Shown here: positions 2,640 through 57,306 of the stretch, piece by piece
How the letters are laid out: each line of letters starts with the position of its first letter
Numbering within the stretch: position 1 is the first letter of the stretch
Assembly: GCA_964016885.1 (NCBI GenBank)
Contig: OZ024748.1
Location: 60,264,001 to 60,328,000 of the forward strand
Direction of reading: 5' to 3'
DNA: 64,000 nucleotides
From: Eledone cirrhosa
Taxonomy: Eukaryota
Translations under genes and position numbers: made by a program
Notes under the pieces: model-generated
What the model was told of the DNA's origin: nothing
Database searches by the model: none
Seen by the model: only the letters and a program-made list of their open reading frames with translations

Positions 2640-3638
2640 AATTAAAACAACAATAAGTATTATCGGCCTATACAAACCGAAAACTCCGAAGAATATGGAG
2701 TGTACATACACTAAAGTATTGCAAGATTATGGGTAAAAATATATAATAAAAATCACTAAGGAGGTGTATAGCATTTAGAACCATATTACAAATATAGTCC
2801 AAAGCAAAAAAACCTAGAGCTAAACAAAGGTAGTTATATAGAGCGGGAATTATATATAATACTATATAATATAATATAGTATACTTGTAACAATATTAAA
2901 ATTACAATAAAAATTAAAAGGTACAATATATATATGTATATATGTACGCACACGTACGCACACATACACATACATCAATAGACATATCCATCTTTAACAG
3001 CACAAATTAAACCTTATTAAGAGTTTAAATATAAATAAGCATGATAGGAATAAAAATAATAATAATAGTAATAATACATATATCTAATATACATGAGGTA
3101 ATAATATGATATGATTATAAGTAGCACATATAATATATAATAAATTATATAATTATATACCATATAATATAATATAATAATAGATAATCTCCGGTTAATT
3201 TACACAAACAATATAGATGTCACAATAATACTATAATAATAATATAATAACATATATAATATATAATATATAATAACAAATCAATTCATATAGAGTTACA
3301 GAGTAGGTGAGAAAAAATATAAATTGTACACTGCCCAAAATTATGATGGTACAAAAATATAAACTTCTTACATGATATATACAATTTAACATATCATAAT
3401 GTTATATATAATCAACGGTAAATAATAAGGATCGATAGTACAATAACAAATACAATATAAAATAATTAACATAATATAATATATGATTACTTATAATTAC
3501 AAGGTTGGTAAACAGACATATATGTGGATGAGTGAGTAAGGGCCAGACAGTAAATAGAGTGCACAGTAGTATTAATAAATAAATAAATAAATAGAATCAA
3601 CCTTGTATAGGCCGATAATACTTCTTGTTGTTTTAATT

Positions 3639-3676
3639 GCCCTGATGAGTCCTTAATAGGACGAAACATTGTTGGC
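3639..3676 (+). ncRNA. Minimal type I hammerhead ribozyme (family A)
   Basis: GCC-CTGATGA-GTCCTTAATAGGAC-GAAAC-ATT-GTT/GGC; stem I GCC/GGC, stem II GTCC/GGAC. Confidence 0.8.
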
Positions 3677-3721
3677 TAATAAAGACTTTTGATGTATTGA
3701 AGGCTTCTTTGTTTTACTTTC

Positions 3722-3813
<92 letters not shown>

Positions 3814-7418: not shown

Positions 7419-7547
<129 letters not shown>

Positions 7548-7594
7548 CATATATATTTCTATATATACATAAATGTATGTCTATATATATATAT

Positions 7595-7878
7595 AAGTTA
7601 AAACAATGAAATAAAAATTTAAGTCATTAGGAAAATGCTTCACTGCTTTACGATCGTTTCTAGGTGATGACCTAGAAACGATCGTAAAGCAGTGAAGTAT
7701 TTTCTTAATGACTTGAATTTTTATTTCATTGTTTTAACTTATATCATGACTCTGTTTTCCTTTTGATGATTTTTTTGTTTTCCGGGATTTATTTTAACCT
7801 ACAACATTATCAACATATGAATTACATTGAGTTCTTCATGCAGACTAGACCCCATAACTAACTGTGGATAATTCTGTG
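7595..7878 (+). mobile_element. Pseudo-LTR fragment with ~146-bp palindrome and 3' half of an HHR
   Basis: 7595-7740 is a near-perfect palindrome centred on TAGGT-GATG-ACCTA, followed by GAAAC-GATC-GTA. Flanked by (TA)n. Confidence 0.65.
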
Positions 7879-7923
7879 TATATATATATATATACATACA
7901 TTTTTCTTTCTATATATACATAA

Positions 7924-7987
<64 letters not shown>

Positions 7988-7989
<2 letters not shown>

Positions 7990-8697
7990 TAGCATTAAAG
8001 CCCGGCGTTGCTCGGGGTCATTAAGTTACCAAAATGAGGTTGCACCACCCATTTTATGGCACCACTTTTTTGTCTGCCAGGCACTGGGTGAATGAATTGC
8101 AGACCTGGAAGCATGAGCTGCGCCAGCAGTGACAATTGTAGTTTCGCCTATGGATATTATCTCTGTGCGAAAAAGTGTTGAAATTTATTGTTTCACAGTA
8201 CTTGCGCAACACGCGCGTAGACGATGCCAGCCGAACAACCGAGCTGCGATGGAGTTGTTCTACATGGTTGTCTGTGTGTATTCTAAATTTAAGACAGTAG
8301 GGAGGGTTGTGATATGAGGGAGAGTTAGCTGCTGTTTCTAGCAGGTTTAGTGACCTCATAGAGGATATGTGTTTTCTAAATTTAAGACAGTAGGGAGTGG
8401 TGTGAACGGACAGTATCAGCATCAAGCTTGGAAAGAGAAAGTAGCAGAAAGTATGAAGTTGTATAGATTTTGAATGGTATAGAAAGAGTTCAGCAGTTTA
8501 AATGAGAGAGAAAAATCGTAAAATATTGAGTTTTATCTATTTTTTGCGTAATTGTGGGTGAAATTGAAAAGCTTATCTGCGTCAAGACGCAATCGAAACT
8601 ATTTCGAATACTGAATTGAAAATTTCAATTGAAGAAATTCTATATCGTAGATTTCTATAACGAAGGAGCATGACCACACACTGAGCTTTATAGATTA

Positions 8698-8753
<56 letters not shown>

Positions 8754-9280: not shown

Positions 9281-9316
<36 letters not shown>

Positions 9317-9422
9317 ATATATATATACATACATATATCTTTCTATACATACATAAATGTATACATATATATAATTATAAAAATAGACAAAGAAGCCTTC
9401 AATACATCAAACATCTTTATTA

Positions 9423-9463
9423 GCCTACAATGTTTCGTCCCATTAATAAGGACTCATCAGGGC
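9423..9463 (-). ncRNA. Minimal type I hammerhead ribozyme (family A, GUA site)
   Basis: Minus strand: GCC-CTGATGA-GTCCTTATTAATGGGAC-GAAAC-ATT-GTA/GGC. Confidence 0.82.
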
Positions 9464-10691
9464 AATTAAACAGATAAGAAGCATTAACGGCCAGAACAAT
9501 CCAAAACTCAAAAGAATAGGGAATTCATATCTATGAAAGCTTATGAGAGATATGAAGGGAAAGCATGCTAAAGCTAAAGCTAAAAGTTTGCATTTACAAA
9601 AATAGATTATATGGAAAGGAAGTGAGTAAAATGTCAAACCCACGTAGAAATTACAGTATGATACAAATACATTAAATACAACATGGTAATATAATATCAG
9701 AATTACAATACAATATAATGGGTAATAAAGCTTAATATATGTATATATATATATATCCATATATATACATTTACACAAACACATACTAACACTTAATAAG
9801 TATAAATATACTCTTTATAATATAAAATAAAAATAAAAATAAAAATAAAAATAAAAACTCCCTGACGGTGCGCATAAACTATACAAAAAATAAACTATAC
9901 AAAAAATAAGCTATACAAGAAATAATATAATATAATATAATAATATAATAAAATAATATACAGACATCAAAAATATACAAAACTACGTCATACATATCAC
10001 TTAATGTCAACAAGTTGTATATAAAGTTTTACAAGGGCAAGAAAAAATATCTTAATAAAACTGGAGTATGTTGAAAAATATATATATATATACATAAATA
10101 CATAAGTACATAAAGTATTGATAATAAGTATATAGATTACATTTATAAAATATTACAAAATATTATAAAATATAACAAAACAGTACCTTAAAAATCAGAC
10201 ATAAAATAATACGTATAATTCCATTACATAGAAATAATATGATATATAAATATTAATATTATAATGATAAATGATACAATAATATAGAAATTTAAAAGCA
10301 GACTAGCAGAGTCAATTGAAAATGTTTAAGAGATATTTACGCGAATAATATATTATATTAATATAGGGAGGCAAGTTATTATGCAAAGCATATTATAGGA
10401 AGACAAAGCAGCAAGTGGTAGTGAAGAAGTAATGATGATGATGATAGGAAGACAGACATCACGTGGTAGTAAAAAAATAAATAAAATAAAATAAAACGAG
10501 GAACAAAAACAAAAAGCAAAAACAAGCACATATATATATATTTATATATAACCAAAAGGCTATTCAATTTGTTGGTAATTCAACCAATATAAATGTTTAT
10601 AACTGATTCAGAGCACTCGACAAGTTTTCTGGAGTATAACATTCAATGATATTAAATAAATGGAAACTATATTTATAAAACCATATTTATT

Positions 10692-10744
10692 CTATTATAT
10701 ATATTTCAAGTGTACCAAAACTTTGGTACGCTTTCATCAGATAA
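10692..10744 (-). ncRNA. Minimal type I hammerhead ribozyme (family C)
   Basis: Minus strand: TTAT-CTGATGA-AAGCGTACCAAAGTTTTGGTACACTT-GAAAT-ATAT-ATA/ATAG; palindromic loop 3. Confidence 0.75.
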
Positions 10745-11921
10745 AATACAAAGTTTGTTTCATAAATTTTGACATAACCAAGAAAAGATACCTTAACGGT
10801 TCAAGTCTTTCTTGGATAGTGAAGGAAAAGAGAAGAAAAGTCAGATATTTCAAATTATTAAGATGAATATGCAAATTAGGTTGAGGTTTAGGGCTGAAAA
10901 AACGTTATTTTAGACGCTATGCAGAATTTAAATAATTAGGATATATATATGAGTAGGGAGAAGAAAAAAAGAAAGAAGAGCTTGATTTACGTTAATTTAA
11001 AAGGAATTAACAATTTGCGGGAATGGTGGAATATGATTCCAGAATTTAAATTTAGCTAAATTATGAGTTATAATATTGTATATATAATCAATTAGATTAT
11101 ATGAAGAATTATGGTTGTAAGTAGATTTTATCTTATTACATTACAATAGATTGTCAGTATATAAATATCTATATAGATTAATAATTGTGCATGTATAAGT
11201 ATTATAGAAATAGAAATAAGTTACAATTATTAGTTGTTTACATTTCTAATATGAGTTACAAAGGATGTTGATTTTGCATTTTACATAAAAAAAACACGTA
11301 GTTCAAGTTGTAAGAGGAGAACAATTTGTAGATTCAAATATTTTGTTCCATCATTGAAAATGTTTTCAGAATATTGTTAATTTAGCGAAGTTATATAGTT
11401 TATCATACATATTATATCATAATATAATGTTTATGTTTGCACGATTGAAAAGGGAAAGATAACTCCAATCTTGTTTGTTAATGGTTAAATTTGATGAATG
11501 ATTTTCTCAGAAAATATATAGAGAAAATTATATATTATTTTGTGTGAGATTAATTTCAATAAAATATTATTTTAGTCGAAAGATATGTGAAAGTTTGAAG
11601 ATAAAAAGAAGAGGAAAAATTAATGTGCATTTCGAAGAACTATCGTAAAGAAGATAAACTTTCAGAATGTCAATTAAAGATTATCAATCTACATCTAAAC
11701 AAATATATTTAGAGGGGTATCATTAAGAAAATAATGTCAAAAGGTAAAAATAGTAAACAAATATATTAAAAAATTAAATTTTTTTTATCTCAAATGGTAA
11801 AAATAGTAGAAATATAAAAAAAATTAAGAAGGAAGATCATTTAAAAAAATTTTAATTTAAATATTTAAAGAAAATAGGATAATTTTGAAGGTGTATAAGG
11901 TATAGTCAAGTGTAATGAATA

Positions 11922-12899
11922 TCATAAATTAAAAATACTTCTGAAAGTGGAATTTTGGCGATTTCTGCAACTAGAAAATAATTCTGTTTTAAGATTAATA
12001 GAGTTTTGACAGTTAATTATATAAAACATTTCTTTGATACACAAGTTACATAATCTTGAGAAAGCCATATTTCGGTATGCAGGCGCTTTCGAAATCGTTT
12101 CCCAAGATATTGAATAGTCTATATTGTTATCTTTTATGTTCCAAATTAAATATGAAAGTGAAGTTAAAGATTTTTTTATCGGATCTATTAAATGTGTGTT
12201 TATGGTTATACCAGCGTTCTTTGAATTTTGTAGAAGTGGCACCAATATAGTTAAATACTTTGTATCTAGTTTTAACTGTACATTTATAAATTACGTTTTT
12301 GTCTAAGCAATTATTTTGTAAAGGGCAGTTTGATTTAATTCTACAGTTACATTTTCTGGAGTTATTGTTCGGAACGGTACTATTATTCTGAATATTGTTG
12401 TTAGAAATATTATTATTGCTATCTTGGTTAGTTTGGTAAGGGTTTAAATTTAAGTTTCCATTATTAATTCTATTTATATTTTGTGCTATGTTCATAGTAG
12501 TAGAGTAGGATAGTTTTATAGTGTGTCTGTTAAAAATAGAGTGGTATCTGTGGGCTTTAGGAAAACATTTATCTAGTGCTTTAAAAAATAGCTTTGCTAA
12601 AGGTGTTTTAACGCTTTATGAGAATGGGGGAGAGTACCAAATAATATTTCTAGTTCTAGCTTTTTTGTTTAGTTTAGCGTTTAAGTTAAATTGTTTATTA
12701 TTATTATAAATAATTCTAGGATGATTTGTCATGTTATTGTTATCTATGTATTTAATTTTATTCGAGTATCCTGCTCTATGTAAAGCTTAATTGTAATATT
12801 CTGCCTTATCATCAAAAATACTTTTATTAGCAGAGATGCGTGAAATCCGTTGTCGGACGCTATTGACAATAGTGTTTTTAATATTTCTAGGAGGATTAG
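11922..12899 (-). pseudogene. Penelope-like RT thumb + linker + GIY-YIG endonuclease (frameshifted)
   Basis: ORF 12127-12495 gives CNCRIKSNCPLQNNCLDKNVIYKC..YIGATSTKFKERWYNH; ORF 11922-12245 gives CNLCIKE..ELFSSCR; upstream frame reads RQRISRISANKSIFD. Confidence 0.88.
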
Positions 12900-12913
12900 G
12901 GTTAGGGTTAGGC

Positions 12914-13354
12914 TTAATGAATATAATTCTAACAGCACGTAAAATCCTAATATAATTTAATAATCATCTCTGGACAAGACCCGACAGAAAAAAACAATTT
13001 TGATATCACTATGGGATAATCTGACTCGGCGCAAGTAACGGACCTCGTTGGATTATTTATTAATAATGTACTGCATAGGAAAATGCCACAGATGATCAGA
13101 GTTTTATATCGCGACGATATGTTACTTTTAATTGAAAACCATAGCAATAGTGAAATTAATAGGAGAAGGAAATCCATAATACAATTTTTCAACAACTACA
13201 ACCTTAATTTAGAAATCTAGAATAATTACAAAATCGTTAACTTCTTAGACGTAACCTTAAACCTTAGCACAGGTCTTTACTATCTATTCCCCAAAATTAA
13301 CGAAAGTCTAAATTACGTAACTTTCAATTCTAATCATCCTAGAAATATTAAAAA

Positions 13355-13360
<6 letters not shown>
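12914..13360 (+). pseudogene. Penelope-like RT core (inverted 5' segment)
   Basis: Manual translation: FDITMG*SDSAQVTDLVGLF...LYRDDML...VNFLDVTLNL...YVTFNSNHP, with stops and a frameshift. Confidence 0.88.
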
Positions 13361-14612: not shown

Positions 14613-14641
<29 letters not shown>

Positions 14642-14649
<8 letters not shown>

Positions 14650-15779
14650 GGAGCTGCGGCGTTGCAAAATGGAATACATATGAAAAAGTGGGTCCTCATC
14701 AGTGACCCTCCAACCGTCCTCGGCATTTCATCGCTTTAAGGGCCATATGCCTCAGGTTGGTGCGAACAACGGCTAAAAAAAGTCGTTGGGACACGTAAAT
14801 AAAGGGGGACATTAGAGTAACAACAAAAGGGTTATAGTAACGGAAAGTGAGTAGAAATAGACAAGTCCCAGATCTCTATGAATATAAACTCTGTGAAATC
14901 GTGAACAAGAGACGAAAGACGAAGATTTCACAGAGTTTATATTCATAGAGATCTGGGACTTGTCTATTTCTACTCACTTTCCGTTGCTATAACCCTTTTG
15001 TTGTTACTCTAATGTCCCCCTTTATTTACGTGTCCCAACGACTTTTTTTAGCCGTTGTTCGCACCAACCTGAGGCATATGGCCCTTAAAGCGATGAAATG
15101 CCGAGGACGGTTGGAGGGTCACTGATGAGGACCCACTTTTTCATATGTATTCCATTTTGCAACGCCGCAGCTCCATTATCACCATATTTACACATATACT
15201 TTCCATGCTGCCTGTCTGTTTCGTTCCTTGTATCTCTACCACTTTTAGCAGTCTCCTCTCTGTTACCCTCTCCTCAACTTTCACTCACTCATTCTCTGTC
15301 ACTACCTCTCCTCCTCCTCTTTCCTCCTCCTCCTTCAAGTTTGACCTGTGTGTAATTCTTTTCTCGCGCAGTCTTGACCGAGCTGGTAATAATTTTTTTT
15401 CTCTCTCTTTCGTCTGCGACTTCACAAAACTTGCGTTTACCGAATTCGTAGACCAGTTTTCGTTCTCTCTCTCTCTCTCCTTTTTCCCCCCTGTCGAACC
15501 TGGGCGAAATTCTTTCCTTGCTCACATTTCTACCAGGTTCGATCGTCTTTCGTCTCTTGTTCACGATTTCACAGAGTTTATATTCATAGAGATCTGGGAC
15601 TTGTCTATTTCTACTCACTTTCCGTTGCTATAACCCTTTTGTTGTTACTCTAATGTCCCCCTTTATTTACGTGTCCCAACGACTTTTTTTAGCCGTTGTT
15701 CGCACCAACCTGAGGCATATGGCCCTTAAAGCGATGAAATGCCGAGGACGGTTGGAGGGTCACTGATGAGGACCCACTT

Positions 15780-16341: not shown

Positions 16342-16465
16342 CGAGGAAGTGTAACTTGGAGTTACTGCAGGTTCACCCGGGTGAGCACTCGATGTTTAGG
16401 TTCACTTCTGTGTTGAGGTGTAGAGCTATACAGAGTGTAATATATTGAAAGGATAACATTTTAAA

Positions 16466-16552
16466 GGGTCCGTCGAGCTGCCGATTATAGAGTCGGGTAA
16501 GATCGATACAGATCGAACATTGAGGTGATCAGTGGCGAAATGCGCGTCACCT
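16466..16552 (+). ncRNA. Degenerate hammerhead with expanded stem II (family D)
   Basis: GGGT-CCGTCGA-GCTGCCGAT..ATCAGTGGC-GAAAT-GCGC-GTC/ACCT. The core has two changes from CTGACGA. Partial sister copy at 22353-22455 (minus). Confidence 0.55.
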
Positions 16553-24879: not shown

Positions 24880-25137
24880 GACTTAATTGTGTTTACAAAA
24901 AATTCTGACCAATCCTCTTGACAACTACAATCTTCCCATATAAGGAATTACCCTTTGAAAAGTTCGGCTATTTATTTACCACGCTAAATATTCTAATTTA
25001 GTGCAGAAATAGCCGTCGAAACGGCTTCAGCTCTGCCGTCGGGGGTCATACATTTTCCTATTACTCACTTTACTACCCTAAGTATTGAATACTCTGGTGC
25101 GTTACGGTCCATCTGGTTCCTTACCACAACTCCTTCG

Positions 25138-25140
<3 letters not shown>
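24880..25140 (+). mobile_element. Family F pseudo-LTR-like element with decayed HHR (24951-25030)
   Basis: TTGAAAA-GTTCGGCTATTT..AAATAGCCGTC-GAAAC. Sister fragments at 35330-35530, 37389-37640, 43100-43195 and 57122-57310, mostly TA-flanked. Confidence 0.65.
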
Positions 25141-25198
<58 letters not shown>

Positions 25199-26853: not shown

Positions 26854-29800
26854 TCAGATATTCAGGACGTATCGGAGGGTTCTTGCCGTTCCAAGCAAGC
26901 ATGCCTTTTGAAGCGTTCCAAAAAGCGTGAAGGGGCCGATTTTCTTTAACCATCCCTGGAAACCTTTGGAGATAGTCCCCAGTGCGCCTATGATAATCGG
27001 GATCACTTTGACTTCATGGCAGTTCCAAATCCTTTTCACCTCCCACTTTAGGTCCTGGTATCGGTTAATTTTCTCCCTCTCCTTCTCTTGCACTCTCGTG
27101 TCGAACGGGCAGGCCACATCCACAATCAGGCACGATCTTTTTTCTTTGTCCACAACCACCAGGTCAGGTCTATTGTGTTCCAGTTTTTTGTCCGTCTGTA
27201 TCCTAAAATCCCACAGCACCTTCACCTGACTGTTCTCCATCACCGCCTCTGGCCTATGCTCATACCATTTCTCAGAATGTGGTAGATTGTTTACTTTGCA
27301 CAGGTGCCAGTGGATCACCCTGCCCATCACATCGTGTCTCCAGCCCTTATAGTGGGTCTGGGCTAGGTGTTTACACTCGGACACAATGTGAGCCACAGTC
27401 TCCTCTCTCTCTCCACAGATCCTGCACAGTGGGCTAGCCTCCTCCTTGTAGATATGGTGCTTCAACCACTTCGTTTTGAGGGCCTGCTCCTGCGCAGCCA
27501 TTAGCATTCCTTCTGTAGCCTTTTTGAGGTCTCCTCTTCTCAACCAGTTCCATGTCTGTGGATCTCTAAATTCAGTTTTCTCAAAGAAGGTACTATGAAG
27601 GGATTTTCCCTTAAGGCTGCTCTTCCTCCTTGATGTTATTTCCTCCTTGGGTATCCCCTGGCCTACTGTCCCCTCCTTCAGTACAGCTCTGAGCATTGGC
27701 TCCTTACTATAGGTCACGTATTTGTATAGGTTGTTTTTCTCCATCTGAACACAGTCCTCTATGCTGATAAGACCTCTTCCACCCTCAGATCTCCTTAGGT
27801 AGAGTCTATCGACATCACTCCTCTTGTGGAACATGTTGTAGATAGTCAATAGCTTCCTAGTCTTCCTATCCATTTCTTTTTGTTCAGCAACATTCCATCT
27901 CAGAATTCCCGCACTGTACCTAATAATAGACACAGCTCGGGAATTTACTGCGCTTATGGCATTTCTGCTGTTCAGATGTGACTTCAATACGCTCCTTACT
28001 CTCCGAATGTATTCAGTTCTTAACAATTCCTTCATTTTTTTGTTCTTTATGCCATCAGCCTCCAGAACGCCCAAATACTTGTATCCTTCCTCAGAGTCAA
28101 TTTCCTTTATCATCTCACCTGTTGGTATCTGGATCCCGTTACTTCTGCTCAACCTACCCCTCCTCATCACAATGACTCCACATTTACCAATACCAAACTG
28201 CATACATATATCACTGCTGAAAATACGGACAGTGTCAACAAGCACATCCAACTCCTTCTCACTTTTCCCGAAGAGCTTAAGATCGTCCATGAAGAGGAGG
28301 TGATTGATGGTAAGCTCTCCCCTTCCCAACTTGTATCCTGCTCTCACTTTTCGCAGCATAATGGTCAAGGGCATCAGGGCAAGGACAAACAACAGAGGGG
28401 ACAGGCTATCTCCCTGGAAGATACCTCTCTTGATCTTCACGCTTCCCAAGGATACTCCAGTTGATGTCAACTCTGTCTCCCAGGACCCCATACTCCTGCC
28501 CAGCAACTGTCTGATGTTATCTGCCACCCTGAAGATCTCCAGGCTTTTGGTGATCCAGGAATGAGGCACCATGTCAAATGCCTTTCTGTAGTCTATCCAT
28601 CCCATGGCAAGATCAGTGTGTCTCCTCCTGCAATTCCCCATTACCATCTTATCAATAAGCAACTGGTCCTTTGTACCACGTGACTTCTTTCGGCATCCTT
28701 TCTGTTCGTCCGGCAACAAGTTGTTTGTGTGGAGGTGATGGTAGATTTCCTCAGACACAATGCTCGTCAACAGTTTCCACATTACGGGCAGACATGTGAT
28801 AGGTCTATAGTTGGTAACATCATTACCCTTGATTCGGTCTTTCATTATCAGAACTGTGGTACCTTTTGTCAACCACTCTGGCACCTCACCCGACACCAAG
28901 CAGTCATTGAACATGGCCGTCAGCTTCGGGTGGAGGGATGTTAAATGTTTAATCCAATACCCCTGCACACCATCTGGGCCTGGTGATTTCCAGTTGGTTA
29001 GTTTTTTGGCTTGCCCCTTAAGAGTTTCAACTGTGATACTCAAATCAGTCTGTTGCTGTGCCTGCTCACCGATCTCCCTCTGTACTGTCTCAATCCACCC
29101 TGCCTGGGCATTGTGTCTAACATCCTGCTCCCATATTCCTCTCCAGAATGTTTTAGCTTGTTCCGCCCCAGGGATCAAGTCGTTGCCTCTTTCTTTCCCC
29201 TCAAGCTGTCCAAACAGCATCTTCTGGTTGTTGTCGAACATGCGGTTCTGTTTATACTGACTGACTCTGTTCTCGTATCGCCTGATTTTGGCACTCTTTG
29301 CTACAATGCGTTGCTTCAATTCCTCTATGATAATATTTAGCTTTTTACTCCTAGTTTTGTATTTTATTTCCAGTCTATTTTTAGTGCCTATGTTTTTTAG
29401 TGTCCCATTCAGTAGTGACTCAAGCTTTCCTATGTCATTTCTCATTTCCCCGATTTGCCCACTCAGTCGCTTCTTCCACCACGGCTCTGCTCTTTCTTGT
29501 CTGTTGTTTCCTCTCGCTTTTATACCAAGTAGTTTCCTCACCGTATTTGCTGTTGCTTTGAGGATATTGTTGCACTGGTGAAGACTCCTCGCCTCAAGGT
29601 ATGGGTTGACTTTGTTTACCTTAGCTGTTGTTTCTTTTAACTTTTTCCTGTCTACAAATCTAAGGTTCATAGGTCTCCCACTATCATTGTTCAACTCATC
29701 TACCACTAAATTTAGGATGTCAACCGAATCTTGTCCTAGCCCGTCAGCATTCATCTCCTCAGTGGCCGTATCTCTGTTCCAGGTATTATTTATCTCAGTA

Positions 29801-30246
29801 TTCAGATCATTGTCTGCTTCGGGTGGTTCCTCCGTTCTCAGGACCTCCTCACCTTCATTTCCCGCCGGCTCGCTTGTCTGGCATACTACACCCGCCATCT
29901 CCAAGCCATTCTCTCTGCTCAGTTCCTCCAGTTCCAGCTCGCTTATCCACCCATTAGTTCTTATTACCCGAGCCTGCCCGGCCAATTTTTGTTCATCTAA
30001 TTTAAATAAACCAATCTCGTTCCAGATGTTATGCATCCGTCTCCTGTAGCCCCTCTCCTTGGGGTTACTTTTCAGGTAGCATTGCATAACAGTTCTATTC
30101 AATTCTTTCGTCCAGTTGGTTCTGGCCCCTTTCCTTCTTCTTCTTCCTCCAACATCAGCAGTATTTGGTTGACAGTCAGGTTCCTGCTGCTGAGCCAGGG
30201 GGCACCTGTTGGGTGAGAGTCTGTCACATGACGTTCTAGTCTCCAT
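26854..30246 (-). CDS. Reverse transcriptase + CCHC + restriction-like endonuclease polyprotein (1130 aa)
   Basis: Motifs KSPGPDG, NYRPITCL, DYRKAFD, GIFQGDSLSP, HLLFMDD, YKYLG, CRIC..ETVAHIVSEC, RHD, RPDL..DVACP..KINRY. Confidence 0.96.
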   Translation of the reverse strand: METRTSCDRLSPNRCPLAQQQEPDCQPNTADVGGRRRRKGARTNWTKELNRTVMQCYLKSNPKERGYRRRMHNIWNEIGLFKLDEQKLAGQARVIRTNGWISELELEELSRENGLEMAGVVCQTSEPAGNEGEEVLRTEEPPEADNDLNTEINNTWNRDTATEEMNADGLGQDSVDILNLVVDELNNDSGRPMNLRFVDRKKLKETTAKVNKVNPYLEARSLHQCNNILKATANTVRKLLGIKARGNNRQERAEPWWKKRLSGQIGEMRNDIGKLESLLNGTLKNIGTKNRLEIKYKTRSKKLNIIIEELKQRIVAKSAKIRRYENRVSQYKQNRMFDNNQKMLFGQLEGKERGNDLIPGAEQAKTFWRGIWEQDVRHNAQAGWIETVQREIGEQAQQQTDLSITVETLKGQAKKLTNWKSPGPDGVQGYWIKHLTSLHPKLTAMFNDCLVSGEVPEWLTKGTTVLIMKDRIKGNDVTNYRPITCLPVMWKLLTSIVSEEIYHHLHTNNLLPDEQKGCRKKSRGTKDQLLIDKMVMGNCRRRHTDLAMGWIDYRKAFDMVPHSWITKSLEIFRVADNIRQLLGRSMGSWETELTSTGVSLGSVKIKRGIFQGDSLSPLLFVLALMPLTIMLRKVRAGYKLGRGELTINHLLFMDDLKLFGKSEKELDVLVDTVRIFSSDICMQFGIGKCGVIVMRRGRLSRSNGIQIPTGEMIKEIDSEEGYKYLGVLEADGIKNKKMKELLRTEYIRRVRSVLKSHLNSRNAISAVNSRAVSIIRYSAGILRWNVAEQKEMDRKTRKLLTIYNMFHKRSDVDRLYLRRSEGGRGLISIEDCVQMEKNNLYKYVTYSKEPMLRAVLKEGTVGQGIPKEEITSRRKSSLKGKSLHSTFFEKTEFRDPQTWNWLRRGDLKKATEGMLMAAQEQALKTKWLKHHIYKEEASPLCRICGEREETVAHIVSECKHLAQTHYKGWRHDVMGRVIHWHLCKVNNLPHSEKWYEHRPEAVMENSQVKVLWDFRIQTDKKLEHNRPDLVVVDKEKRSCLIVDVACPFDTRVQEKEREKINRYQDLKWEVKRIWNCHEVKVIPIIIGALGTISKGFQGWLKKIGPFTLFGTLQKACLLGTARTLRYVLNI

Positions 30247-30815
30247 TTCACCGTTATTCGAACTGTTTATGTTCGATATTTAAACACTCTTATCGAGGAT
30301 TGGCGAATGTATGTTTACATAGCCATCTGTGGATCCGCCATCCCACTTGGCCCTTGTGTGGCATTATCACCACGCTGTATACGGACACACATAAACAAAC
30401 AAACACACGGGCAGAAAGGGCCCCAAAAATGAATAAGCATAAGTTTCATTGTAATGTAGTATTCGAATGTCTGACTTAGTTTTTGTTTTTTAAGTTTTAC
30501 TTTTTCCCCCCTCTTCTCTGTCCGTCCGCCTGCTTCTCTCTTCATTCTTATTTTCTTTACGTTTTTGGGGTTTCTTTTTTTGTTTTTGTTTTTCTCTGTT
30601 TTTCTCGTTTTTTACTGTTGTTGCTGTGCTGCTTTTGTTGTTTGTTTTTTCTTTTTTCTTTTGAGTCTATCTATATATTTTGATGCCTTCCTCTTTGTTA
30701 GTAGTAGGAATTCTATAATGTGGAAGTGGTAGCCAGCAGAGACTGGCGGCGTTGGCGATACTGAGACAGTGGTGGTGGTGATGTCGATACCGAGGCAGTG
30801 GTGGCGGTGATGCGA

Positions 30816-35315: not shown

Positions 35316-35541
35316 AGAAAGGCCGTATGTCAACATGGCATACCTACGACTCCTTCAGAATTTACGGGACCATAATGCACCGGAGTATTCAATACTTAGG
35401 GTAGTAGAGTGGGTAATAGGAAAAGTGTCAGGACCCCGACGGCTGAGCTCCGGCCGTTTCGACAGCTAGATTCGAATCTAGCTGTCGAAACGGCCAGAGC
35501 TCAGCCGTCGGGTCCTGACTCTTTTCCTATATGTGTATGTG

Positions 35542-37497: not shown

Positions 37498-37682
37498 ACG
37501 AAGGAAATATGGTAAGGAACCAGGTGGACCATAACGCACCAAAGTACTCAATACTTAGGGTAGTAGAGTGGGTAATAGGAACGAGTAGGACCCCGACGGC
37601 TGAGCTCAAGCCGTTTAGACGGTCCTACTCGTTCCTATATATATATATATACATATATATGAGAGAGAGAGAGAGATAGTCG

Positions 37683-40964: not shown

Positions 40965-41005
40965 GAAGTTGGCGCACAGAATCAGAGACGAGCTCACATA
41001 CGGAA

Positions 41006-41097
41006 GCATATCTGACGATCTTTCGATTACAGAGTCAAGTTCGACCAATAATACGTCGTTCCTCGAGCTGATCGATAGTGAAACCTATGTAATATGT
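41006..41097 (+). ncRNA. Hammerhead with expanded stem II (family D-related)
   Basis: GCATAT-CTGACGA-TCTTTCGAT..ATCGATAGT-GAAAC-CTAT-GTA/ATATGT. Mismatches at the base of stem II. Confidence 0.65.
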
Positions 41098-43098: not shown

Positions 43099-43275
43099 TT
43101 AGTGGTTTAAAGTGTGGTAAGGAACCAGGTGGACCATAACGCACCAGAGTACTCAATACTTAGGGTAGTAGAGTGGGTAGTCCTGTTTTCCTATATATAC
43201 TGTATATATACCTACGGATATATATACATACGTTCAAATGCACGCATACACACACATATATATATATAAATAATA

Positions 43276-54094: not shown

Positions 54095-54369
54095 AATAAA
54101 TATGGTTTTATAAATATAGTTTCCATTTGTTTAATATCGTATATATATATATATATATATATAAGTATGTATACGTACATACATATATGTATACAGACGT
54201 AAAGTGGTATGTATATATATATACATACATGCACACATATATATATGTACGTATGGATTCACCGAACATTTATTATAATGCTCGGTGTGTTTGTAAACAA
54301 ACATCCCGAATTAAGCCGTACAGTGTCTAGCAACCATCGTTGCTCATTTGTTCAACCCTGACAAAGGAA

Positions 54370-54410
54370 CGCTTTACTAGTTTCAAGCTTATTAGCTATC
54401 GTCAGCAACG
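54370..54410 (-). ncRNA. Minimal type I hammerhead ribozyme (family G)
   Basis: Minus strand: CGTTG-CTGACGA-TAGCTAATAAGCTT-GAAAC-TA-GTA/AAGCG; one stem I mismatch. Confidence 0.75.
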
Positions 54411-55045
54411 TATACCTTCCTGCCAGATGATTGAACGTCTGAAAGTATATACTTTCCTCATGCATATTAACGGCTGAGCAGCCTAATTTGCATATCGAGT
54501 GAGTTAATCGGCCGGGGTACCGAAAACGATAAACTGAAAAATGAAACGAAATTTCATTTCTCACTCTTACAAACACACCGAGCATTATAATAAATGTTCG
54601 GTAAACCCATACGTACATATATATATGTGTGCATGTATATATATACACATACTACTGTACGTTCCTTTGTCAGTGTTGAACAAACGAGCAACGATGGTTG
54701 CTAGACACTACGGCTTAATACGGGATGTTTCTTTACAAACACACCGAGCATTATAATAAATGTTCGGTGAATCCATACGTACATATATAAGTGTCCATGT
54801 ATGTATATATATATATACATACTACTGTACGTCTGTATACATATATGTATGTACGTATACATACTTATATTTAAGTAACAGCCGTACTAAGAGAGAAATG
54901 AAATTTCGTTTCATTTTTTCCGTTTATCGTTTTCGGTACCCCGGCCGATTAACTCACTCGATATGCAAATTAGGCTGCTCAGCCGTTAATATGCATAAGG
55001 AAAGTATATACTTTCAGACGTTCAATCATCTGGCAGGAAGGTATA

Positions 55046-55086
55046 CGTTGCTGACGATAGCTAATAAGCTTGAAACTAGTACAGCG
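55046..55086 (+). ncRNA. Minimal type I hammerhead ribozyme (family G)
   Basis: CGTTG-CTGACGA-TAGCTAATAAGCTT-GAAAC-TA-GTA/CAGCG; self-complementary ACTAGT in stem III. Predicted cut after 55081. Confidence 0.85.
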
Positions 55087-55379
55087 TTCCTTTGTCAGTG
55101 TTGAACAAACGAGCAACGATGGTTGCTAGACACTACGGCTTAATACGGGATGTTTGTTTACAAACACACCGAGCATTATAATAAATGTTCGGTGAATCCA
55201 TACGTACATATATAAGTGTCCATGTATGTATATATATACATACTACTGTACGTCTGTATACATATATGTATGTACGTATACATACTTATATTTAAGTAAC
55301 TTAAATATAAGTATGTATACGTACATACATATATGTATACAGACGTACAGTAGTATGTATATATATACATACATGGACA

Positions 55380-55742
<363 letters not shown>

Positions 55743-55873: not shown

Positions 55874-56595
55874 GTATGTGTTCCTACATGTAAATAATAC
55901 ACATAGGGATAAAAATATAGTCTGACAGTATGCCAGCGTGGTTCAATGGCAAGTTAGTAAATTAACAAGCTAGAACATATAAAATCAAGGGAAAGAAAAT
56001 AAAGAAAAATATTTTAAATAAATAAAAAAAAATTCACTGTACTTACTATATGTGCCTTTACCGCGGTTTCAGATCCCAAAACAAATAGATAATCCAGGCG
56101 GATTTCCAATGAGAAAGAGATCGAAAGAGATCTATATTCTCTGTCGGAGAATATAGAATTCCCGAGTTCAAAATACAAACTGGCGCCATAAAAAACTGCC
56201 CCAGAAAATAAATGTAGGAACACATACTTTTAATATTATTCTCCCCAACGGTGGAGAAAACTTTGGTCATTTGAACGGTTGCTAATTTAGTAGCAAGAGA
56301 TTGACCTGTCCACCTTGCTTTCAGTCTTTGCACACGGTAGTAGACCAAATTGTTTCATCATTCATTTGCTGGGGCAGTTTTGTATGGCGCCAGTTTGTAT
56401 TTTGAAATCGGGAATTCTATATTCTCCGAGAGAGAAAGGCCTTCTGACGAGGATCTCTTTCTCAATGGAAATCCGCTTGGATTATCTATTTGTTTTGGGA
56501 TCTGAAACCGCGGTAAAGGCTCATATAGGAAGTACAGTGAATTTTTTGAAATTTATTTATATTTTTTTTCTTTATTTGCTTTCCCTTGCTTTCAT
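55868..56595. mobile_element. Pseudo-LTR-like element with ~220-bp inverted repeats (family H)
   Basis: About 55986-56205 is inverted at 56369-56590; extra short inversion 55868-55889/56211-56232; TA-flanked. Confidence 0.75.
56439..56520 (+). ncRNA. Type I hammerhead ribozyme with long stem II (family H)
   Basis: GCCTT-CTGACGA-GGATCTC..GGGATCT-GAAAC-CGCG-GTA/AAGGC; perfect core and palindromic loop 3. Predicted cut after 56515. Confidence 0.88.
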
Positions 56596-57121: not shown

Positions 57122-57306
57122 ATAGGAACCAGTAAGACCCCGACAGCTGAGCTCAAGCCGTTTCGACGGCTAATTGAATTAGCCGTCGAAACGGCTTGAG
57201 CTCAGCTGTCGGGGTCTTACTGGTTCCTATTACCCACTCTACTACCTCAAGTATTGAGTACTTTGGTGCGTTATGGTCCACCTGGTTCCTTACCACATTT
57301 CCTTCG

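Follow-up and report, generated by a model that had tools for sequence, protein, structure and literature searches.

The palindrome at positions 7595-7740 is likely the stump of a Penelope-like element inserted head to head, and the hairpin at its centre is likely a product (a scar) of the inversion junction rather than a ribozyme stem that caused it. The locus was analysed within a 64,000-nt stretch of Eledone cirrhosa DNA (hereafter, the window), which is AT-rich, microsatellite-laden and animal-like. The insertion that contains the palindrome, 7595-7878, is a real feature. The initial annotation had assigned it a Penelope-like origin, recognised the 3' half of a hammerhead ribozyme beside its centre and placed the turn near that hammerhead, all of which is likely right; the specific mechanism it proposed, in which the cDNA snapped back on the stem II hairpin and primed itself, is not supported, and a weaker claim of a breakpoint hot-spot is what remains.

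The palindrome and the extent of the insertion

As first described, 7595-7740 is a 146-base palindrome, with 138 of its 146 positions self-complementary. It is composed of two 71-bp arms around a 4-nt centre, GATG, with three arm mismatches (7620/7715, 7630/7705 and 7637/7698), and the centre pair 7666/7669 is also unpaired. Its fold has a z of -25.3, which was equalled by 0 of 200 shuffles. The central sequence is TAGGT-GATG-ACCTA, as had been stated, and is followed at 7675-7686 by GAAAC-GATC-GTA, which begins 5 nt beyond the palindrome centre. Judged by sequence, the whole insertion exceeds the extent originally given, in that the right arm runs on as family sequence to about 7878. The order is (TA)n, inverted short arm, forward arm, 134-nt tail and (TA)n, and the parts are as follows (X1, X4, X5 and X6 denote public runs).

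7534..7594 (+): left flank, possibly a long target-site duplication, rich in TA around a short unique core, 56/61 identical to 7885-7945
7595..7670 (-): inverted, 5'-truncated arm without a tail, which takes in the central GATGA (native TCATC in reverse complement) and has the left (TA)n at its end; from the sequence and four X1 contigs
7649..7660 (-): mirror copy of the hammerhead half-motif in the left arm, from palindrome symmetry
7670..7744 (+): forward, 5'-truncated arm, of which 7740-7744 is a common family 3' end; from contigs that break off into (TA)n after 7744
7675..7686 (+): part of a type I hammerhead, likely its 3' half, with a GAAA box, a palindromic stem/loop III and a GTA triplet (5' box not observed); from the sequence, the architecture in the available text of PMC4209133 and the motif at 56444-56515
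7745..7878 (+): tail of ~134 nt confined to the right arm, an unbroken stretch of family sequence with (TA)n at its end; from X1 records 1, 2 and 4-6 and X5 record 17
7885..7945 (+): right flank, second copy of the possible duplication, 56/61 identical to 7534-7594

The left and right arms overlap by one nucleotide, A7670, and X5 record 17 covers 7671-7877 in one piece. The left arm terminates exactly at a family 3' end, 7744, behind which (TA)n follows in 48 contigs from three runs (20 in X1, 2 in X4 and 26 in X5); other family members extend to about 7840-7878, giving the family two alternative 3' ends. GAAA lies 65 nt from the short end in this family, compared with 61-63 nt in families F3 and F4, which have full CTGANGA motifs. 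The insertion combines the Penelope-like traits of a head-to-head inverted, 5'-truncated copy, a one-sided tail with two 3' ends and a (TA)n target. It contains no open reading frame, a second copy of the repeat family was not found within the 64-kb window, and no function is evident for this one dead stump.

This layout is like that of endonuclease-bearing Penelope-like insertions, for which the available text of PMC8557442 and PMC3846280 describes a pLTR, an inverted, 5'-truncated partner placed head to head, a palindrome at the junction, a tail on one arm and a microsatellite target with a (TA)n bias. By contrast with those insertions, 7595-7878 is a stump without an open reading frame and its tail is ~134 nt rather than 30-40 nt, and the portions of the two papers available to us do not tie the junction to a hammerhead.

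The flanking 60-mer is mostly TA. It is present in three copies within 1.8 kb (7534-7594, 7885-7945 and 9318-9378, the third 54/61 identical) and nowhere else in the window; the three copies are possibly successive long target duplications.

Native relatives and the central hairpin

Four of the eight listed public runs were compared with 7640-7878 at 80% likeness, and 695 contigs (X1), 35 contigs (X4), 1055 contigs (X5) and 374 reads (X6) aligned. With hundreds of aligned contigs and reads, the sequence at 7595-7878 belongs to a repeat family. None of the runs listed as containing the stretch is an RNA run, and a family 19-mer gave 0 matches in metagenome contigs. Two viral loci from a 16-mer search and four metagenome loci from a gapped hammerhead pattern were rejected as chance matches, with only 13-23 nt in common with the element.

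Family members that continue upstream depart from the palindrome at 7670, namely 14 of 695 X1 contigs, 2 of 35 X4 contigs and 98 of 374 X6 reads, the last being reduced-representation reads from possibly few loci (54 end at one place) with a median loose length of 100 nt. A further 32 X5 contigs depart at 7672, where, as at 7667, the loose-end rows are blurrier (agreement 0.71-0.80). The consensus directly before 7670 in the non-palindromic members ends TTATCATC or TTATTATC, a reading of the loose ends taken from 24 rows listed of 214. The upstream extensions, of 54 and 128 nt in X4 records 9 and 10 and of ~100 nt in X6 reads, have neither a mirrored arm nor a strand-change joint among the rows listed; these X4 and X6 members are thus non-palindromic. 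A MITE or foldback element was rejected as a classification, as most family members seen are non-palindromic and lack terminal inverted repeats at their boundaries.

The native letters before ACCTA are CATC (or TATC), not GATG, and the central GATG is therefore their CATC in reverse complement, that is, part of the inverted arm. Indeed, four X1 contigs aligned to the left arm agree with it as far as 7670, GATGA included, and beyond that carry the reverse complement of the native upstream sequence, which indicates that the left arm reaches 7670 and that the arms overlap by one base. TAGGT-GATG-ACCTA, which had been taken for the native stem II, is accordingly not found as such in the relatives. 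The expectation that CTGANGA would precede TAGGT in non-palindromic members was contradicted: the native copies lack TAGGT-GATG, and the 35 nt visible upstream contain no TAGGT, AGG or CTGANGA. Inspection by eye of the X1, X4 and X6 consensus rows showed no conserved hairpin in the native sequence visible upstream. Since the central hairpin is absent from the non-palindromic relatives, it is probably a product of the inversion. The reading of GTGATGA as a remnant CTGATGA box was rejected as well, the native copies showing it to be the reverse complement of TCATCAC.

Both arms carry 7701T, where the family has A in ~99% of X1 depth and in 117 of 130 X6 reads; at 7705 only the left arm retains the family base. 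Among 40 variants listed of 157, none falls in 7671-7685, and the A>T variant at 7686 retains H. One X5 contig has a joint, 7675|7816, on opposite strands, an asymmetric inversion within the family, and in one X4 contig the loose end before 7824 resembles, by eye, the reverse complement of 7707-7731.

The hammerhead half-motif and junction positions in the window

A count over both strands of 57,000 unmasked bases gave 33 half-motifs of GAAA, palindrome and TH, 18 of them with a palindrome of at least 6 nt. The probability that such a half-motif lies within 15 nt of a given point is P ~0.004 (0.002 for palindromes of at least 6 nt), values that are conservative because the count takes in real hammerheads. 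An Rfam search of 7590-7885 returned no hammerhead and 14 sub-threshold hairpin-type matches, and a control search of 3636-3680 returned Hammerhead_1 (E 1e-5). For the whole window, the 150 matches listed of 347 were all below the gathering score and mostly involved microRNA models on microsatellites or hairpins.

The motif at 7675 is similar to the minimal type I hammerheads of metazoan pLTRs, as these are presented in the available text of PMC4209133, in its GAAA box, its palindromic 15.2-16.2 pairs and loop 3 (a palindromic loop 3 being a reported trait of pLTR hammerheads) and its UH triplet. It is unlike them in that CUGANGA and stems I and II are not observed in the 7595-7878 family, 11.1 would be A rather than C and stem II would span more than 35 nt. 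With A before GAAA, the motif at 7675 differs from the G10.1-C11.1 pair that PMC4209133 reports as conserved, as do other motifs in the window. The same source notes pairs of pLTR hammerhead motifs 100-700 bp apart on opposite strands. The copy at 7595-7878, which has no 5' box, would be unable to cut alone.

The spacing between boxes in the complete or near-complete motifs of the window ranges from 14 to 61 nt, with long spacings of 53 nt at 56444, 61 nt at 41012 and ~50-55 nt at 16478 and 24955. The motif at 56444-56515, with 53 nt between its boxes and a basal helix, has the same GAAAC-palindrome-GTA-AAG ending as the motif at 7675. These features suggest that the 7595-7878 family probably has a hammerhead with a long stem II, the 5' box of which has not been seen. 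Long-stem type I hammerhead-like motifs with non-canonical closing bases are located at 56430-56520 (+), 41000-41095 (+), 16465-16550 (+) and 24940-25061 (+).

Junctions next to a hammerhead could be compared in a second family of the window, F2, for which both palindromic and non-palindromic copies are available:

24940..25061 (+): non-palindromic F2 copy, type I hammerhead fold (z -2.6) in which stem II is long (z -3.9 for its region) and the CTGANGA box has decayed
35416..35530 (no strand assigned): F2 palindrome with a 0-nt centre 13 nt upstream of GAAAC
57122..57230 (no strand assigned): F2 palindrome with a 1-nt centre 12 nt upstream of GAAAC
37575..37638 (no strand assigned): F2 asymmetric inversion with a 28-nt spacer from the tail-bearing arm

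The fold at 24940-25061 is three-way, with a 9-bp basal stem II and a loop region of ~33 nt; Rfam gave 0 matches on 24930-25150. The tight F2 palindromes lack this native ~33-nt loop and mirror their own private changes. At 37575-37638 the long arm terminates 5 nt before the GAAA position is reached, on its upstream side, and the short arm begins ~3 nt after the predicted cut site. Overall, six F2 arms at four loci begin 5-13 nt upstream of GAAAC, a zone within or slightly past the strand that forms the 3' side of the native basal stem II, and the F2 copy at 43179 begins downstream of GAAAC.

Seven head-to-head junctions belong to hammerhead-bearing families of the window, and four of them (7667, 35473, 57176 and 37622) lie 5-13 nt upstream of GAAA, a bias to which F2 contributes three of the four cases and for which junctions were chosen by eye in one window. 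The other three lie outside this zone, at 39 nt before the 5' box in F3, ~160 nt in F5 and ~100 nt in F7. This distribution is suggestive of a putative breakpoint hot-spot on the 3' side of stem II.

Other copies in the window are arranged differently. Family P1 (157-737 and 14626-15820) forms palindromes with 282- and 264-bp arms and with 17- and 23-nt spacers of opposite polarity; it has a CTGATGA box near its 3' end, and its two palindromes turn with no recognised type I hammerhead motif nearby. F3 (2552-2675 / 3603-3726 and 9290-9522) contains complete short hammerheads (Rfam Hammerhead_1, E 1e-5), and its inverted arm retains the whole motif. The inverted F7 arm at 56070-56150 has a small local inverted duplication in place of the CTGACGA box region. 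A perfect palindrome at 55208-55388, with 90-bp arms and a 1-nt centre, is tail-to-tail relative to the hammerhead at 55051, which is the arrangement that PMC3846280, in the text available, expects from self-priming on a sense template. It is located within a complex of partial tandem and inverted copies (54156-55388), in which the copy at 54660 begins ~4 nt after the predicted cut site.

A Penelope-like endonuclease fragment, recognised by eye, is located at 11922-12615 (-), ~1.2 kb upstream of a hammerhead-like motif. It is part of a decayed Penelope-like element at 10600-13360 (-), which comprises the endonuclease fragment with a Cys-rich linker, a 1.2-kb AT-rich 3' region and the hammerhead-like motif at 10740, as well as a 31-bp inverted piece (12869-12899 / 13330-13360) and a few TTAGGG repeats near 12900. 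Pfam gave no match for two endonuclease-like fragments. At 26854-30279 (-) there is a 1141-aa open frame with a reverse transcriptase domain (Pfam RVT_1, E 6e-23), presumably of an R4/Dong-type non-LTR element. The ends of 7988-8700 may resemble those of a Helentron/HINE-type non-autonomous element in a TA run.

Origin of the head-to-head junction

Several observations speak against cDNA snap-back on a stem II hairpin as the mechanism of inversion. The hairpin was probably made by the inversion, and native copies have none at the turn. The centres of the F2 palindromes measure 0 and 1 nt, where the native loop is ~33 nt. A single snap-back would also leave the spacer on the wrong side, as the four loop letters sit in the tail-less arm and a copied arm cannot outreach the cDNA at its 3' end. 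As a general mechanism, a turn at stem II is contradicted by the 3 of 7 hammerhead-family junctions and the two P1 palindromes that lie away from stem II.

Our best explanation, to which we assign a little under an even chance, is that two cDNAs were made from the two cut target ends, both stopped 5-10 nt upstream of the likely GAAA box and the two were then joined. Each target end would prime one cDNA of the same repeat end; both cDNAs would stop at the same RNA barrier 5-10 nt upstream of the likely hammerhead GAAA, and the stopped cDNAs would be joined head to head in the (TA)n run. A barrier common to both cDNAs would give a tight palindrome with no prior hairpin needed, and independent stops would give longer, one-sided spacers. 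The spacer polarity in the window is mixed: the tail-less arm supplies the spacer at 7667 and 14901-14923, and the tail-bearing arm supplies it at 439-455 and 37593-37620. Such a mixture is predicted by two independent cDNAs and not by one target-primed fold-back, in which the loop-bearing arm is the first cDNA and the other arm its copy, so that the copy cannot reach further 3'. A 4-nt spacer can flip later, which would erase this argument from polarity. Two cDNAs are also favoured by the native CATC/TATC letters, by the asymmetric inversions in single X5 and X4 contigs, by a GAAA-to-end distance close to that of F3 and F4, by the endonuclease fragment at 11922-12615 and by the starts of F2 arms upstream of GAAAC. 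Other findings also weigh against two cDNAs. The shared 7701T fits copying from one strand at least as well, no coding sequence or CTGANGA box is linked to the family within the 35 nt of native upstream sequence, the A before GAAA is at odds with the reported G10.1-C11.1 pair, the tail is 134 nt versus the published 30-40 nt, the putative hot-spot draws on 4 of 7 junctions, three of them from F2, and three palindrome centres are nearly perfect.

The main competitor is a single cDNA that stopped near stem II, folded back on a chance microhomology of 0-3 nt and copied itself, followed by a spacer flip, a tail from a second cDNA or loss of the left-arm tail; we regard it as possible, though unlikely. 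It would account for the near-perfect symmetry of the three hammerhead-family palindromes with 0-, 1- and 4-nt centres and for private variants common to both arms (7701T here and TAGCTGTC in both arms at 35473), and the junction polarity at 37575-37638 and 157-737 is as expected for fold-back of a tail-primed cDNA. Self-priming as the source of Penelope junction palindromes was moreover proposed in 2013 in PMC3846280, which, in the text available, draws the same inference from such palindromes. The locus departs from that model in that the spacer at 7667 derives from the tail-less arm and there is no native hairpin at the turn. Spacers from the tail-less arm at 7595-7740 and 14637-15187 would require an extra event, only one base pair (A7670 with T7665) would close the loop, and 0- or 1-nt centres cannot be loops as they stand. 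A variant that retains the hairpin, in which a long native stem II has a distant 5' strand that pairs with TCATCACCTA, with cDNA snap-back and later deletion of the loop, appears improbable to us; its literal tetraloop form is refuted by the differing native upstream letters. Stems II are long in the window (50-61 nt between boxes) and the turn is where the 3' strand of stem II would be, but no TAGGT or AGG appears in the 35 nt visible upstream, the F2 palindromes lack the native loop and mirror private changes rather than the native 5' strand, and 0 of 3 tight palindromes retain any native loop.

We give a similarly slim chance to the idea that the element is not Penelope-like, or that a replication template switch or break repair produced the palindrome once the element had inserted, with the half-motif incidental. 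The family has no link to an open reading frame, no 5' box and no Rfam hammerhead match, all of which would fit an unrelated origin; it is countered by the position of the motif (P ~0.002-0.004), by a 3' geometry, tail and (TA)n target that are the same as in families with complete motifs, by the exact end of the left arm at a family 3' end and by the mostly non-palindromic state of the family members seen, unlike a MITE. That the palindrome is a fold-back chimera of assembly or amplification is scarcely credible, even though none of the 24 pieces listed of 1803 bridges the palindrome centre and reads therefore give the palindrome no independent confirmation, because 3 of 71 positions are mismatched between the arms, and the family base at 7705 is kept in the left arm alone. 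These arm differences indicate a real, aged locus. The end of the left arm at a family 3' end and the occurrence of the same layout in several other families likewise argue against an artefact.

Joining of two cDNAs has partial parallels in known systems. As reported in the available text of PMC11167929, the purified Penelope-like protein Poseidon PAc, a predicted dimer, nicks and extends both strands in vitro, starts reverse transcription at two internal sites, which set the tail, and can insert without hammerhead cleavage. Poseidon PAc and 7595-7878 have two 3' ends and AT-rich targets in common, and the protein supplies biochemistry for priming at two ends; 5' junctions and inversions are not treated in the portion of that paper available. 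In L1 twin priming (Ostertag and Kazazian 2001, as described in the accessible text of PMC2246262), both sides of the break prime reverse transcription and an inversion results. The two L1 primers copy different regions of one RNA, whereas the arms at 7595-7878 cover the same 3' region. A 2026 preprint on animal retrozymes (10.64898/2026.07.22.740005) provides context only. In the part of the literature that was covered, we found no title or abstract that ties inversion points to hammerhead stem II.

An extension of joining between two cDNAs, which we advance with some doubt, is that a folded or protein-bound stem II may be a fixed stop for the Penelope reverse transcriptase. A dimer would prime two cDNAs, one from each target end, at two start sites. 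Both would come to a halt at the 3' strand of stem II, and near-perfect mini-palindromes would result when the two were joined. How Penelope-like elements form inverted ends and what their hammerheads do are open questions in the available text of PMC8557442 and PMC11167929, and the locus at 7595-7878 takes away an attractive answer, namely that cDNA snaps back on a native stem II tetraloop. If the extension is true, the ribozyme would act on insertions as a structural barrier and not through cleavage, and the polarity of spacers in genomes would separate the joining of two cDNAs from self-priming.
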